Below, in pieces: positions 32,560 to 44,900 of a stretch of DNA of 64,000 nucleotides. This DNA is from a bacterium (GTDB taxonomy: Bacteria > Patescibacteriota > Patescibacteriia > Veblenbacterales > UBA10138), in NCBI GenBank assembly GCA_020057885.1, contig JAGVEX010000009.1, positions 36,704 to 100,703 on the forward strand, in the 5' to 3' direction. Both the position numbers and the translations under genes were made by a program. Below the pieces are notes generated by a model. The model saw nothing but the letters and a program-made list of their open reading frames with translations. It was not told the origin of the DNA and made no database searches. How positions within the stretch are numbered: position 1 is the first letter of the stretch; every line of letters begins with the position of its first letter.

Positions 32560-32650
32560 AGTAATATTATTGTAGCTTATAAATAGATCTTTGAAAAATA
32601 AAAAACCGCCCCTAAAAAAGAGCGGTTTTGAATAATAATCAATCTATTAT

Positions 32651-33928
32651 TTATAATTCATCATAATCTCTCATTACGAGTTGGGCGTTGACTTGACGCA
32701 CAGTTTCAATAACCACTGATACTACGATCAAAAGTGAAGTGCCTCCAATTACCAAAAGTTGTGAACCAGTAACAAAACGTAAAATAAGTGGTAATACTGC
32801 TACCACACCCAAAAACAAAGCGCCTGGCAAAAGAACATGATTCATAACATGACCCAAATATTCTTCAGTGTTACGCCCCGGACGAATGCCTGGCACAAAG
32901 CCACCCTGTTTTTGCAAATTCTCAGCAATTTGATCAGGTTTAAAAATAACCGCTGTATAAAAATAAGTAAAACCAAAAACTAATACAAAATAAGCAATGG
33001 CATAAAAAAGCTGGTTTTGAAACAAATCAATAGTAAACTGAGCAGCCGATACCAACCAAGCTGATTGCGACTTCACCAAAAACTGCGCCACCATGGGAGG
33101 GAATATGATTACCGAAATAGCAAATATAATAGGGATCACGCCTGCTTGTAAAAGACGCAAAGGTAAAAAAGTTGTAGCGCCGCCATATGTTTTACTACCG
33201 CGAACCATACGTGCATAAGTAACTGGAATATTGCGTTGCGCCTCTGTTACCAATACCACAGCCACAATGGTTAAAATCGCCACAGCCACAAAAACTATTA
33301 TGTTAAAAATTTGGGATTGATCGAAAACAGCAAAAGCCTGCTGAATTTGCTGTGGAATGCCTGCCACAATACCGGCAAAAATTAAAAGCGAAATACCATT
33401 ACCCACCTTGCGTTCAGAAATAAGTTCACCAATCCACATTAAAAAAACAGTACCGGCTGTAATAGTAACAATACTAATAGTTAATTGCCAAGGATCCAGC
33501 GCGCCGACAATTTTACCTCCGCCTTGCCCACGTAAAATTGCTATAAAACCATAGGCTTGTAAAGCGGCCATTGGCACTGTCAGCCAGCGGGTATATTGAT
33601 TAATGCGATGGTATCCAGCTTCACCGTCTTTAGAAATTTCCTCTAAGCGCGGCACTATCATGGTCAAAAGCTGCATAATAATAGAAGCCGTAATGTAAGG
33701 GCCAACACCAAGCATTACCACGGAAAAATTCTCTAAACCGCCGCCGGAAAACAGATTAAGCAAACCCAACAACTGATTAGAGGAAAAAAAGTTACGCAAG
33801 GCTGCTGCATCAACACCTGGAATTGGTAAATGTGCGGCAATACGAAAAATCACCAAACAACCCAAAACAAACAAAATGTTTTTTCTAAGATCCGGAGTTT
33901 TCCAAATCTGTCCTAATTTTTGCCACAT
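32651..33928 (-). CDS. secY: preprotein translocase subunit SecY
   Basis: 425 aa, 10 TM. Confidence 0.9.
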   Translation of the reverse strand: MWQKLGQIWKTPDLRKNILFVLGCLVIFRIAAHLPIPGVDAAALRNFFSSNQLLGLLNLFSGGGLENFSVVMLGVGPYITASIIMQLLTMIVPRLEEISKDGEAGYHRINQYTRWLTVPMAALQAYGFIAILRGQGGGKIVGALDPWQLTISIVTITAGTVFLMWIGELISERKVGNGISLLIFAGIVAGIPQQIQQAFAVFDQSQIFNIIVFVAVAILTIVAVVLVTEAQRNIPVTYARMVRGSKTYGGATTFLPLRLLQAGVIPIIFAISVIIFPPMVAQFLVKSQSAWLVSAAQFTIDLFQNQLFYAIAYFVLVFGFTYFYTAVIFKPDQIAENLQKQGGFVPGIRPGRNTEEYLGHVMNHVLLPGALFLGVVAVLPLILRFVTGSQLLVIGGTSLLIVVSVVIETVRQVNAQLVMRDYDEL

Positions 33929-33940
33929 AAAAGCAAAAGT

Positions 33941-34399
33941 TTAAACCTTATTCTTTATAATCAATTCTACTTTGCCACCGGCTTTTTCTATAGAAGCTCT
34001 CGCTCCGGCCGAAATACTATTAACCATTACTGTAAGAGTTGGTTTAATTTTACCACCACCAATTAATTTAACCAATCCTTTGGCGTTCGTTATCAAACCT
34101 TTTTTCGCTAACATTAGTGGAGTTACTTGGGCGCCGTTTTCAAAAACATTCAATTCTGCCACGTTAATTACCTGAGGGCGTATTTTAAAACTACGAAAAC
34201 CGCGTACTTTTGGTAAACGAGTAATAAAATGTTTAACTCCGAATTGCACCAACCCTTTGCGCCCACCTTGGCGCGCACGCTGTCCTTTAACGCCACGGGT
34301 AGAATAAGCGCCATGCCCCGAACCCAACCCTCTGCCCAAACGTTTACGGCGGTGTCGTGAACCACTAGCTGACTTTAGTGAATGAAGTGTAAGTGTCAT
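33941..34399 (-). CDS. rplO: 50S ribosomal protein L15
   Basis: 152 aa. Confidence 0.9.
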   Translation of the reverse strand: MTLTLHSLKSASGSRHRRKRLGRGLGSGHGAYSTRGVKGQRARQGGRKGLVQFGVKHFITRLPKVRGFRSFKIRPQVINVAELNVFENGAQVTPLMLAKKGLITNAKGLVKLIGGGKIKPTLTVMVNSISAGARASIEKAGGKVELIIKNKV

Positions 34400-34418
34400 A
34401 AATAACTTATTTAAAACC

Positions 34419-34931
34419 TTAACGAGTTAATTTAAACTGACCAAAGGCTTTAATAACTGCTCTAACATTATTGATTTTATTAGGAGAACCTAAAATTTTA
34501 CTAACAACATTAGGTACGCCTGCCATCTCTAACACTACCCGCACCGGACCACCAGCAATAATACCTGTACCGGTAGGGGCTGGCCTTAAAATTACTTTAG
34601 CACTCTTATACTTAACTGTAATTTCATGTGGCAAAGTATCACCTTTTAGAGGCACTTGAATTAATGATTTTCGAGCTTTAGTAGCGGCCTTTTCCACAGC
34701 TAAACTAACATCGGCGCCTTTGGCCAAACCAACTCCCACTTTACCTTTTTTATTACCAACTACTATAAGTGCTCGAAAACGCATACGCTTACCACCAGCC
34801 ATTACACGAGTAACGCGAGCTAATTCTACTACGCGTTGATCAAACTCATCTTCCACCCTATCTCGTCTGGGGCCTCTGCCCATACCGCGTCCACCGCGAC
34901 CGCCTCTTTGTTGTTGCATACCCATTACCAT
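34419..34931 (-). CDS. rpsE: 30S ribosomal protein S5 (no L30 gene between rpsE and rplO)
   Basis: 170 aa. Confidence 0.9.
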   Translation of the reverse strand: MVMGMQQQRGGRGGRGMGRGPRRDRVEDEFDQRVVELARVTRVMAGGKRMRFRALIVVGNKKGKVGVGLAKGADVSLAVEKAATKARKSLIQVPLKGDTLPHEITVKYKSAKVILRPAPTGTGIIAGGPVRVVLEMAGVPNVVSKILGSPNKINNVRAVIKAFGQFKLTR

Positions 34932-35869: not shown

Positions 35870-36256
35870 TTAATAAATTTCACAAATAACTTCTCCGCCC
35901 AAGCTTTTAGCACGTGCCTCACGATTAGTCATAAGGCCTTGGGAAGTTGAAATAATAGCAATACCTAAACCAGAAAGTACCTTGGGCAATTCGGAAGATT
36001 TAACATAAAAACGTCTACCTGGCTTGCTAATACGTTTTAAACTGCGAATAGGAACCTGTCCTTTGTCATAACTAAGCTGCAAACGCAAACTTCGATAAGG
36101 CGCTGCGACTTCATCAAACGACTTAAGGTACCCTTCGTGTACTAAAATATCAGCTAGGTTTGCCTTTAGCCTAGAGTACGGCACCATTACCTCAGTCTTG
36201 CGGACCATGATAATGTTGCGAATTCTTGTAAGCATGTCACTGATTGGATCTGTCAT
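35870..36256 (-). CDS. rpsH: 30S ribosomal protein S8
   Basis: 128 aa. Confidence 0.9.
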   Translation of the reverse strand: MTDPISDMLTRIRNIIMVRKTEVMVPYSRLKANLADILVHEGYLKSFDEVAAPYRSLRLQLSYDKGQVPIRSLKRISKPGRRFYVKSSELPKVLSGLGIAIISTSQGLMTNREARAKSLGGEVICEIY

Positions 36257-41947: not shown

Positions 41948-42556
41948 TTAATTGGCGCTTATTAACAATAAACTATTCCGTCCACCTGGTACTGCGCCTT
42001 TTACTAAAAGTTCATTTTTTTCAATATCTACTGCCACCACCTTTAAATTAGGCACTGTTATTCTGTCTCCACCCATACGACCAGCCATGCGCATACCTTT
42101 ACGCACATGCTGAACTCCGCCTGCCCCAATTGAACCAGGCATACGCTCTTGATCCTTATGACCATGTGTGGATGGGTGGCCATGAAAACCATGTCGCCTA
42201 ACCACACCTTGGAATCCTTTGCCTTTTGATATACCTATCACCTTAACTAAATCACCTGGCGTAAATTGGCTTATATCTATAGTCTGACCAATTTTATATT
42301 CGCCACCATTAATATAAAATTCTCTCAAAAAGCGGGATTCTGCGCCACTGGTCTTAAGATGACCTAGCAATGGTTTTTTTAAGTTTCTCTTTTTTCCGGA
42401 AGATAATTGAACAGCCTCATAACCATCTTTATCCTTGGTTTTTACTTGCGTCACTACACATGGTCCAGCTTTTAATTTAGTAACAGAAACCACCACGCCA
42501 TCTTCACGGAAGATACGAGACATGCCGATTTTATTAGCTATTAAAAACTTAGACAT
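41948..42556 (-). CDS. rplC: 50S ribosomal protein L3
   Basis: 202 aa. Confidence 0.9.
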   Translation of the reverse strand: MSKFLIANKIGMSRIFREDGVVVSVTKLKAGPCVVTQVKTKDKDGYEAVQLSSGKKRNLKKPLLGHLKTSGAESRFLREFYINGGEYKIGQTIDISQFTPGDLVKVIGISKGKGFQGVVRRHGFHGHPSTHGHKDQERMPGSIGAGGVQHVRKGMRMAGRMGGDRITVPNLKVVAVDIEKNELLVKGAVPGGRNSLLLISAN

Positions 42557-42667
42557 AAAAACTTAAAACAAAAACCGCTTAGCTTAAACCACACTAACCC
42601 TATTTGCTAAACGGTAAAACATAAATAGTCTCGGATTAAAGTGTAAGAGTTAGTTGAATTAATAATT

Positions 42668-42770
42668 CCTGTGGGCTTTAACTAAATCTGCCAAATCGGA
42701 CCCTGGGTAACTGCTGGTTTGCTCCGCTTCTCGCGGAACACCTTAACAGTGCTCGGGTAAGCCACAAATA
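42668..42770 (-). ncRNA. ffs: candidate small SRP RNA (4.5S/ffs-like) embedded between rpsJ and rplC
   Basis: About 100-nt GC-rich segment in an unusually long 245-nt rpsJ-rplC spacer. On the minus strand the ends pair (UGUGGCUU/AAGCCCACA) and the apex is UCCGC-GAGA-GCGGA followed by AGCA...CCAGCAG. This resembles SRP domain IV (GNRA-capped helix followed by AGCAGCC). Confidence 0.4.
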
Positions 42771-42801
42771 ATAAATGATTTAAATGAATGTTAATACGTT
42801 A

Positions 42802-43173
42802 CTACATTTTAATTTCCACGTCAACCCCTGCTGGTAAATTCAAATTGGTTAAGGCGTCAATCGTTTTGGGGGTTGGCTCTAAGATATCAAGCAGTCTTTT
42901 ATGCACTCTCATTTCATACTGTTCACGGGCGTTCTTATCAATAAAGGAGGAGCTGTTAACTATATAACGCGTCTTTTCGGTGGGCAATGGTATAGGTCCT
43001 ACCACTTTAGCGCCAGTGCGCAAAACCGTGTCCAAGATAGTACGCACCGCCTGATCAATAATTTTATGATCATAGGCGCGAATGCGAATCCTCAGCCGCG
43101 AGCGTGATTCCTCTTCAGCCGCGACCTTCGTTTCGTTCTTAACTTTAAGATTATCAGTCTTTAATGCCGTCAT
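42802..43173 (-). CDS. rpsJ: 30S ribosomal protein S10 (N-terminal extension)
   Basis: 123 aa; [16 protein letters not shown]. Confidence 0.9.
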
Positions 43174-43242
43174 GGAACAGTTTATAAGTTGGTGAAAGAA
43201 CTACTTTTTGCCCTCCTATAAAGAACAATTTATATAATAAGA

Positions 43243-44445
43243 TTACTTAATGATCTTAGTTACTACGCCTGCGCCGACCGTACGACCACCTTCACGTATA
43301 GCAAAACGTAATTTTTCTTCCAAAGCAACTGGGGCAATTAACTTAACTGTAATGTTTACTTTATCACCAGGCATAACCATTTCTGCGCCAGCTGGCAAGC
43401 CAACTTCACCAGTTACATCGGTAGTACGAATATAGAATTGCGGTTTATAACCTTTAAGGAATGGGGTGTGGCGACCTCCTTCATCTTTAGTAAGGACGTA
43501 ACAGGAAGCCTCAAATTCTGTGTGTGGAGTTACTGAACCTGGTTTAGCTATTACCTGACCACGCTCAACATCTTCTTTTTTCAAACCACGCATTAAAAGA
43601 CCAGCATTATCACCAGCGCGACCTTCGTCAAGTTGCTTATTAAACATTTCAATACCAGTAATAACTGTTTTTTGGGTGTCGCGTAAACCAATTACTTCCA
43701 CTTCATCATTAAGTTTTACAATACCGCGCTCAATACGTCCTGTAACCACTGTGCCACGGCCTTCGATTGAGAAAATATCTTCAATTGGCATTAAGAAAGG
43801 CTTTTCGATATCACGAACTGGTTCGGGAATATATTCATCTAAAGCTTTTATTAATTCCATTATAGGTTGAAGTGCTGGATCATCTTTTTTACCGGCTTGA
43901 GCCGCCTCTAAAGCTTTAAGAGCACTACCACGAATAATCGGTGTTTTGTCTCCTGGGAATTCATATTTCTTCAAAAGATCCCTAACTTCCTCTTCTACCA
44001 AGTCAACCAAATCCTTGTCATCAACCATATCAACTTTGTTTAAGAAAACCACAATATAAGGCACGCCTACCTGCCTCGCCAATAGAATATGTTCGCGAGT
44101 TTGGGGCATTGGACCATCAGCCGCAGAAACAACCAAAATAGCGCCATCCATTTGAGCGGCACCGGTAATCATGTTTTTAATATAATCAGCGTGGCCTGGG
44201 CAGTCTACGTGGGCATAGTGGCGCTTATCAGACTCATACTCAACGTGTGCGGTATTAATGGTAATACCACGAGCTTTTTCCTCAGGTGCATTGTCAATAT
44301 TATCAACTCCTTTATCTTGAGCATTGTGTCCAGAAGCTCTCAAGGCCTGCAAAATTGCGGCTGTCAGAGTGGTCTTGCCGTGGTCAACGTGGCCAATAGT
44401 ACCAACGTTAATGTGCGGCTTGGAACGGTCAAATTTTTCTGCCAT
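43243..44445 (-). CDS. tuf: elongation factor Tu
   Basis: 400 aa; [10 protein letters not shown]. Confidence 0.95.
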
Positions 44446-44600: not shown

Positions 44601-44900
44601 TTAAATGGGTTCAGGAAAATACTGATCATCATCCATTAAGGCGCCTTGGGGCGGATCAATAGCTTCCAATCCGTCCTGGTTCGTTGGCTGACTGTTTTTA
44701 AAAACTTGTGCTTGTTTTGGTTGGTTTTTAATATCTTTATTAGGTATTTTGGCAACTAAACTATCAGATTTACGCGATTGCTCATATTCAGTCAATGGTA
44801 CCAATACCATTGGTTCACCCTCCGGCATAACCAAAACAACTTTTTCTCCGCGGCGGGAAAAAATCCGGTTAAGTTGTTCCAGATCAAGATTCACTTTCAT
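44601..44900 (-). CDS. small Phd/YefM-like (antitoxin-fold) protein inserted between fusA and tuf
   Basis: 99 aa; RRGEKVVLVMPEGEPMVLVPLTEYEQ resembles the Phd/YefM N-terminal fold; acidic C-terminal tail. Confidence 0.4.
   Translation of the reverse strand: MKVNLDLEQLNRIFSRRGEKVVLVMPEGEPMVLVPLTEYEQSRKSDSLVAKIPNKDIKNQPKQAQVFKNSQPTNQDGLEAIDPPQGALMDDDQYFPEPI

Follow-up and report, generated by a model that had tools for sequence, protein, structure and literature searches.

In Escherichia coli, the genes rpsJ (ribosomal protein S10/NusE) and rplC (L3) lie 32 nucleotides (nt) apart. In a 64-kb window of Patescibacteria DNA (the window being the whole stretch that was analysed), they are separated by 245 nt (42557-42801), and the question raised by this locus is what occupies the gap. 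All features given below by window coordinates lie on the minus strand, which is the coding strand of the spacer. A sequence-only reading of the window had pointed out the 245-nt distance, which we confirmed, and had seen in the spacer a candidate signal recognition particle (SRP, 4.5S-like) RNA or, failing that, an unannotated structured element within the S10 operon. It is the fallback that held, as we found a conserved element, supported by covariation and absent from Rfam 15, which is very probably a cis-element and not SRP RNA. The spacer is best explained as a leader that acts in cis within a fused tuf-rpsJ/S10-spc gene string, not as a separate RNA gene. It contains a long hairpin, element A, whose core resembles the site recognized by ribosomal protein S8 in helix 21 of 16S ribosomal RNA (rRNA), and a terminator-like hairpin, element B, placed just before rplC. 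We class the whole as a ribosomal-protein leader mimicking rRNA; no Patescibacteria ribosomal leader of this kind was found in the searchable literature or in Rfam 15.

A conserved hairpin between rpsJ and rplC

Element A (42669-42767) is a long irregular hairpin composed of a base helix (UGUGGCUU/AAGCC(C)ACA), an ACCC/GGGU helix, internal loops, a core, and an apex stem-loop. Folded alone, the segment 42660-42772 had a minimum free energy (MFE) of -32.8 kcal/mol (z = -2.67), and only 2 of 200 shuffles were as stable. The G+C content was 0.43-0.45 across the hairpin, as compared with 0.32-0.33 on both sides. The sequence-only reading had described a GC-rich hairpin of about 100 nt on the coding strand, with a terminal helix and internal loops, and both the hairpin and its terminal helix were indeed present. 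When the whole spacer was folded as one piece, the result was unremarkable (z = -0.85). The core (42710-42750) reads, 5' to 3', ACUGUU-(A)A-GGU-[GUUCCGC GAGAA GCGGAGC]-AAA-CC-AGCAGU, with a lower helix of 6 base pairs (bp) and an upper helix of 7 bp, both of which covary in relatives. The upper, or distal, helix is the apex stem-loop (42721-42739). Its loop is the pentaloop GAGAA (42728-42732) and not the GAGA tetraloop of the sequence-only reading.

Three close relatives (loci L162-L164), whose L3 proteins are 90-92% identical to that of the window, kept 88-89% identity in the spacer, as compared with 69-78% at third codon positions of rpsJ, rplC, and rplD. This indicated that the spacer is under purifying selection. 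Of the 97 positions of element A that were aligned with L162 (L3 92% identical), 86 were the same as in the window; the apex loop of this relative was UAAA. The long-hairpin architecture was also seen in other relatives. In more distant homologues, neither the apex stems nor the loops are related to those of the window (AAGC, CCAAUA, and UAAA being examples of such loops), and distal stems of about 8 nt up to 110 nt were found. The apex varies in sequence and length among homologues, its stems covarying across relatives.

Related loci were collected by an S10-based scan of one genome per species, which gave 80 loci, all in Patescibacteria metagenome-assembled genomes, the closest being in a Kerfeldbacteria genome. 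A scan of metagenomes gave 80 further loci, and in total 155 loci held both rpsJ and rplC. The spacer was at least 146 nt long in all 155, with a median of 260 nt. A search with nhmmer of the window hairpin against the first 80 spacers returned just itself. By sequence patterns, 123 of the 155 spacers could be assigned to one of four variants. Type 1, found in about half of the loci, has the pattern RGAG-AAA-GNU-[variable hairpin]-A(A/U)-AAC-CUCY. In an alignment of 25 examples, 89% of the positions expected to pair did so, and covariation was 0.61, versus 0.21 in shuffles and at most 0.19 with the pairing partners slid. The covariance model built from this alignment, R1, matched 45 of the 80 genome loci and 39 of the 80 metagenome loci, and every match with E<0.1 was on the coding strand and within the spacer.

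Even with its filters switched off, the R1 search gave no match to the window hairpin at E<=10. The window is instead a member of a sister subfamily of type 1, termed 1b, in which the pattern is P1 - 2 to 4 nt - GGU - [hairpin] - AA - ACC - P1'. The 1b seed alignment was 95.5% paired, with a covariation of 0.67 versus 0.21 in shuffles, and GGU and AAACC were invariant in nine of nine subfamily sequences. A second covariance model, R2, was built from eight 1b cores with the window left out. Run on both strands of the 64-kb window (128 kb), it gave as its top match 42708-42752(-), that is, the core of element A, with 16.1 bits and E = 0.023. R2 also picked up the non-seed loci L162, L169, L164, and L002, in each case in the spacer.

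Two further variants complete the family. Type 2 has the pattern AG-GUU...AU-AAC-G. In type 3, [Pa]-AUAAC-[hairpin]-AAGU(G/A)-[Pa'], the two strands of the loop are swapped. Intermediates between variants were found in L047 (AA bulge), L105 (GGU), and L019 (AG bulge). A single covariance model for all variants was abandoned, as MAFFT placed them out of register, and a hand-written descriptor covering types 1, 1b, and 2 was used instead. It matched 50 of the 155 spacers, versus 2-3 in shuffles and 3 on the reverse complement. Three other descriptors (the first structural one, a loose S8 one, and a loose type-3 one) matched shuffles at least half as often as the real spacers and were not counted as evidence.

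Incidentally, we noticed additional features in some spacers. In L003 (~260-401 in spacer coordinates), L008 (~230-373), and L082/L083 (~210-350), hairpin B and the rplC start codon are set apart by an additional long hairpin of about 140 nt (GCCCGGUA...UACCGGGU). Its arms are alike between loci, and it might represent a repeat, a mobile element, or a second domain with a regulatory role. Other spacers are much longer, such as those of L049 (2012 nt), L053 (771 nt), L135, L147, L149, and L159. These open with apparent small inserted genes carrying repeated segments, e.g., ...GAUGAGGUAGAUAAACGUUUUGAU... in L159, and the extra material represents insertions at the same intergenic site. Type-1 spacers (e.g., L027, L105, L119, and L134) carry a conserved AAGGAGAUUAACAAUU about 20-40 nt after the motif; it is Shine-Dalgarno-like with no start codon following, and its 3' half resembles the E. 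coli boxA (UUAACAAUUU). We did not retain a boxA/Nus-factor site, since AAGGAGAUUAACAAUU in some type-1 spacers is only partly like boxA, the boxA compared being that of E. coli.

The core of element A and the S8 site of helix 21

What does the conserved loop of element A look like? The S8 site is a helix interrupted by seven conserved loop nucleotides (PMC4176348). One base triple is A595.(A596-U644), which in Thermus is G595.(C596-G644); another is (G597-C643).N641, accompanied by the invariant A642 (PMC4176348). The Rfam consensus of bacterial small-subunit rRNA gives helix 21 as [helix]-A-aGu-[helix]...[helix]-a-aA-Cu-[helix], in which one nucleotide is bulged on the 5' side and two on the 3' side. 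The core of element A could be laid onto this site as follows. A42743 takes position 595 and adjoins the Watson-Crick pair G42742-C42716 (596-644); G42741-C42717 corresponds to 597-643, and U42740-A42720 to 598-640; A42719 stands at 641, an "a" in the bacterial consensus, and A42718 at the invariant bulged A642. The window thus shows a purine at 595 with the 596-644 pair, G597-C643, the third base 641, A642, U598-A640, and the two flanking helices. Its core, (A)A-GGU...A-AA-CC, departs from the consensus in two respects only, namely a compensated G-C at 596-644 and an additional bulged A.

The specificity of this likeness was assessed with a strict S8 descriptor (A-N-G-U / A-[AU]-A-C-N, with a Watson-Crick pair at 596-644 and no helix shorter than 4 bp). 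Its single match in the E. coli rrn operon was the true S8 site (16S 587-652). In the window, it gave the core of element A and one match inside an open reading frame (ORF) of 270 amino acids. By chance, about one match was found per block-shuffled window, which translates into an expectation of about 0.002 for the 245-nt spacer, a figure that stands before allowing for the other rRNA sites compared, two 23S sites having been tried first.

The wider family was informative in this respect. In type 1, the invariant or near-invariant loop columns map to 595, 596, 598, 640, 642, 643, and 644, and the two variable columns map to 597 and 641. These two varied together: U597 was found with U641 in 22 of 30 cases, and a nucleotide other than U at 597 with A641 in 50 of 60 (Fisher p = 2.4e-7, with no correction for phylogeny). 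Positions 597 and 641 of S8 sites are members of one base triple (PMC4176348). Type 3, with its swapped strands, shares its topology with the S8 site of the E. coli spc messenger RNA (mRNA), in which the capped helix G12-C79 has A7-A8-A9-C10-U11 on its 5' side and A80-A81-G82-U83 on its 3' side (Fu et al.). The distal stem of that mRNA site is likewise free to vary (Fu et al.).

A mimic of another rRNA segment, 23S 467-487 (GGGAAAGGCGAAAAGAACCCC), was considered and rejected, since in the Rfam large-subunit consensus its CCCC pairs downstream, so that no hairpin is formed, and since R1 misses the site. The sequence itself does exist. The other 23S site, helix 7, is taken up below with the proteins that may compete with S8 as ligand.

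Element B and the predicted feedback

Hairpin A is followed by GG(A/G)R, a G-free linker, a conserved UAUG, and hairpin B. The linker (AAUUAUUAAUUCAACUAACUCUUACACUUUAAUCC, 42633-42667) starts directly 3' of the GG and has 35 nt free of G, a run as long as this being found in 15 of 1000 shuffles. Runs of 23-42 nt free of G were found at the same place in 11 of 16 subfamily members. Element B (42570-42615) is formed by ACCGUUUAGC...GCUAAGCGGU (42574-42615), and its closing U starts a U5 tract (42570-42574). It had an MFE of -14.3 kcal/mol (z = -2.60) and was found in 15 of 15 subfamily relatives. In 14 aligned sequences, the window included, its stem was 94% paired, with compensatory changes at four pairs. 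Across the family, a stable hairpin followed by a U-run was present in 125 of 153 spacers, versus about 23 in shuffles and 65 on the reverse complement. In several lineages, we found mutually exclusive hairpins around it, GCCAG...CUGGC versus AUCUGGC...GGCAGAU followed by U's. Element B ends 13 nt before the rplC AUG, so that any rplC transcript must pass it. It would then be a terminator that is leaky or regulated, or else some other type of operator.

An AUG is present 3-13 nt before hairpin B in every subfamily member. In the window, it opens a short ORF (AUG, 12 sense codons, UAA; 42584-42622) that runs into hairpin B and is of uncertain significance. Neither the frame nor the peptide is conserved among subfamily members. 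In the wider family, ORFs starting with ATG were not enriched (20 of 125, versus 13-35 for control triplets). Attenuation by a leader peptide was rejected, given these differences in peptide and frame and an indel that puts close relatives in different frames.

The gene proposed to encode the ligand, rpsH (S8; 35870-36256, Pfam Ribosomal_S8 1.2e-44), lies 6.3 kb downstream of the spacer in the same packed gene string. The order, all on the minus strand, is fusA, a 99-amino-acid ORF, tuf, rpsJ, the spacer, rplC, rplD, rplW, rplB, etc., and after rplB the string continues without large gaps to rplN, rplX, rplE, rpsN, rpsH, and beyond. From rplC to rplO, intergenic gaps are about 20 nt or less, among which the 245-nt spacer stands out. 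On its upstream side, rpsJ (42802-43173) was in the ORF list and matched Pfam Ribosomal_S10 (1.6e-32); it follows tuf (43243-44445, EF-Tu domains by Pfam) after a gap of 69 nt. On its downstream side, rplC (41948-42556) matched Pfam Ribosomal_L3.

From these sequence comparisons, we infer that S8 binds element A and that transcription terminates at element B. As a sensor, the asymmetric internal loop of element A would copy the S8 site of helix 21, including the bulged A next to a Watson-Crick pair, the G-C pair with its third base, the invariant bulged A, the closing U-A, and a distal stem that is free to vary. S8 in excess over free 16S rRNA would bind this loop, and in its bound state would favor termination, or block expression, at element B. 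The simplest route would be for S8 to promote termination at B, much as L4, together with NusA, promotes it in the S10 leader of E. coli. The outcome would be less L3, L4, and further products, S8 included, while tuf-rpsJ expression would go on. That S8 is the ligand of element A is a prediction for which we see the chances as even, and attenuation at element B is one that we would equally expect to hold or to fail. The reading as a whole, an S8-site-like leader with S8 feedback via element B, is put forward tentatively, its chances being slightly short of even. Only a little less likely is a broader reading, by which in most Parcubacteria-type Patescibacteria the fused S10-spc string would be under an S8-sensing RNA lying between rpsJ and rplC, a convergent mimic of helix 21 with at least four structural variants in both strand orientations, acting by a transcription attenuator where E. 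coli uses translational repression.

Several observations weigh against this reading. Neither R1 nor R2 matched E. coli 16S 587-652 at E<=10; because both models miss helix 21, the S8 likeness is a motif-level comparison, made over a 7-nt loop and after trials of three other rRNA sites. Within 1b, position "595" is C or U in five of the eight seeds (L086, L013, L008, L017, and L003), and in those five the 5' junction has 3-4 nt, not 1. Type 1 has N.A at 597-643 in place of G-C and carries two extra bulged A's. The helix 21 used for comparison is that of E. coli and of the Rfam bacterial consensus. As regards the output, a stricter terminator scan (loop 3-8) left out element B, whose loop is long, and no conserved alternative pairing between A and B was found. 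Lastly, E. coli S8 acts on translation at rplE, with no attenuation before rplC.

A leader/attenuator of the same design might sense another protein, namely L4, L3, or one of L24, L29, and L23; we consider this unlikely. The element lies directly upstream of rplC-rplD, L3 being encoded by the first gene downstream; in E. coli, the S10 operon is controlled by L4 at the levels of attenuation and translation (PMC3616713), and Archaeoglobi have a candidate "L4" leader in front of rplC (PMC7247131). However, we found nothing in sequence or structure that resembles a known site for L4 or L3, and the S8 site of helix 21 matches position for position. For the L24/L29/L23 version, helix 7 of E. coli 23S rRNA (P1-AA-GGU-loop-ACC-GUUAUA-P1') has in common with the core the string "AA GGU...ACC". 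A possible cross-link of L24 lies at 23S 99-107. We rejected helix 7 as the site mimicked and kept it as a weak rival: its topology differs, with the 3' bulge on the other side of ACC and no AA bulge, and neither R1 nor R2 matched it.

Somewhat less probable still is a constitutive element that needs no ligand and, acting as a stability hairpin, as a site of RNase processing, or as a partial terminator, sets the ratio between tuf-rpsJ and the downstream ribosomal-protein mRNA. The E. coli rplL-rpoB intergenic region, with its attenuator and RNase III site, offers an analogue. Such an element would fit with the near-universal presence of terminator-like hairpins in the spacer, with the requirement for EF-Tu in excess over ribosomes, with a second internal terminator-like hairpin between secY and adk (see below), and with the finding of no conserved A-B switch. 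Yet a plain terminator or processing hairpin would need no internal loop with invariant unpaired nucleotides, and this loop, found in two orientations, is kept in about 120 diverged loci, with stems that covary freely. The S8-sensing leader remains our preferred reading.

A small-molecule riboswitch, or another non-protein sensor acting via the terminator, appears very improbable: a conserved structured domain without a match to a known Rfam family is indeed followed by a terminator-like hairpin, but the conserved part is a small internal loop of 1x2 to 3x2 nt, with a distal stem of about 8 to 110 nt and no closed multi-helix pocket, and there is a known protein site that the core matches.

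An independent small RNA gene in the operon, SRP RNA included, with hairpin B as its terminator, can scarcely be credited, even though a long hairpin of about 100 nt is followed about 95 nt later by a terminator-like hairpin and no ffs was found elsewhere in the 64-kb window. A cmscan with 4227 Rfam families and permissive filters gave nothing in 42450-42900 at E<=10. Covariance searches with the SRP families RF00169, which the sequence-only reading had proposed, and RF01854 gave no match in the window at the gathering score or at E<=1, and in 20 related loci no SRP or other family was found at the gathering threshold. The likeness of the apex to SRP RNA domain IV did not survive comparison, since its features (GNAR tetraloop, AGCA) are not conserved: even in L162, the apex loop differs, and GGAACAAACC stands where the window has GGAGCAAACC (AGCA -> AACA). 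The great range of apex lengths among homologues, and a strand and position fixed between two co-oriented essential genes at 155 loci, also speak against a separate gene. A promoter scan of the coding strand of the spacer gave no site, and a candidate -35/-10 in the AU-rich stretch before A was rejected, being broken by a 13-nt indel in close relatives.

Other candidates for the spacer were discarded too. ARAGORN found no tRNA or transfer-messenger RNA in the region. As for a small protein gene, just two mechanical ORFs of 27-29 amino acids (TTG or GTG starts) lie within hairpin A, where homologues carry unrelated stems.

Some features of the gene string around the spacer may be added. Its assignment has Pfam support for EF-Tu, S10, L3, L4, L23, L2, L14, L24, L15, L5, S14, S8, L6, SecY, and adenylate kinase. 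The end of rpsJ carries tandem in-frame stops, UAG UAA (42799-42804), which are kept in L162-L164, the UAA opening the spacer. No recognizable Shine-Dalgarno sequence precedes rplC (42557-42569) or rpsJ (43174-43242), a U-rich stretch (GUUUUAAGUUUUU) preceding the rplC AUG, and translation at these two genes may be initiated without Shine-Dalgarno pairing. The 99-amino-acid ORF between fusA and tuf (44601-44900) had no Pfam match and is an unusual insertion in a str operon. Further downstream, an ORF taken as rpsE (34419-34931, with no Pfam check) is followed after 19 nt by rplO (Pfam L15; region 33941-34931), and this spacing leaves no room for rpmD (L30). L30 is not known from the candidate phyla radiation, with which this spacing fits.

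Canonical intrinsic-terminator-like hairpins occur elsewhere in the genome. In the 91-nt gap between secY and adk (32560-32650), there is a strong one at 32602-32629 (AAAACCGCUC...GGGGCGGUUUU plus a U-run), overlapped by weak sub-threshold Rfam matches at 32586-32692. It may be a second operon-internal attenuator. In the whole window, Rfam 15 at the gathering threshold found only a T-box, a LOOT RNA, and two tRNAs. The T-box leader (RF00230, 61588-61889) scored 114.3 bits and has long insertions relative to the family consensus. The LOOT RNA (RF03000, 20634-20755) is full-length, with 79.3 bits versus a gathering score of 46.4; we know of no function for LOOT RNA.

Comparison with known systems

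Most of what is known about autoregulatory ribosomal-protein leaders comes from E. coli and Bacillus. The Patescibacteria (candidate phyla radiation) are a very large and almost uncultured group with reduced genomes, and hardly anything is known of their gene regulation. A conserved RNA at a fixed place in the largest essential operon offers a concrete and testable circuit, with a defined protein as its predicted ligand and a defined putative terminator as its read-out. If true, the S8 reading would provide a new phylum-scale feedback circuit for ribosomal proteins, an RNA family absent from Rfam, and a further case of independently evolved rRNA mimicry. The alignments may seed a new RNA family and improve the annotation of thousands of metagenome-assembled genomes, and a tempting mis-annotation of the hairpin as SRP RNA is corrected. 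Like element A, bacterial small SRP RNA (RF00169) forms an irregular hairpin that is about 100 nt long and has internal loops close to the apex. In element A, however, there is no conserved GNAR tetraloop, AGCA is not kept among homologues, the apex varies, and the position in the operon is fixed.

In archaea, rpsJ stands with tuf and apart from the L3 operon, and the same arrangement is found here. The Archaeoglobi L4 leader candidate (Eckert and Weinberg 2020, PMC7247131) is also a conserved RNA directly before rplC-rplD-rplW-rplB. It belongs, however, to another domain of life, and its ligand is assigned by precedent only. Its Rfam model had no match in the 20 loci at the gathering threshold or in the window spacer at E<=10.

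The E. coli S10 leader, whose ligand is L4, also has a sensor hairpin upstream of an attenuator hairpin with a U-run, and governs rplC-rplD... by autogenous feedback (PMC3616713). It lies upstream of rpsJ and consists of five hairpins, HA to HG, whereas element A lies between rpsJ and rplC; the gap between tuf and rpsJ is only 69 nt here. No sequence or structure similarity between that leader and the spacer was seen.

The closest likeness is to the S8 system. The asymmetric internal loop that element A carries between its two helices is also that of the S8 site in helix 21 and in the spc mRNA at the rplE start, and element A is likewise in the mRNA of a gene string that encodes S8. The orientation is that of rRNA in the window and in types 1 and 2, and that of the spc mRNA in type 3. 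The Patescibacteria sites differ by extra bulged A's 5' of the loop, by G-C at 596-644, and, in type 1, by N.A at 597-643. The mRNA site of S8 has been reported as confined to Gammaproteobacteria (PMC3616713), whereas the site predicted here is in Patescibacteria. The E. coli site overlaps rplE and serves translational repression; element A heads the fused S10-spc string, in front of rplC, and is followed by a terminator-like hairpin, which suggests attenuation.

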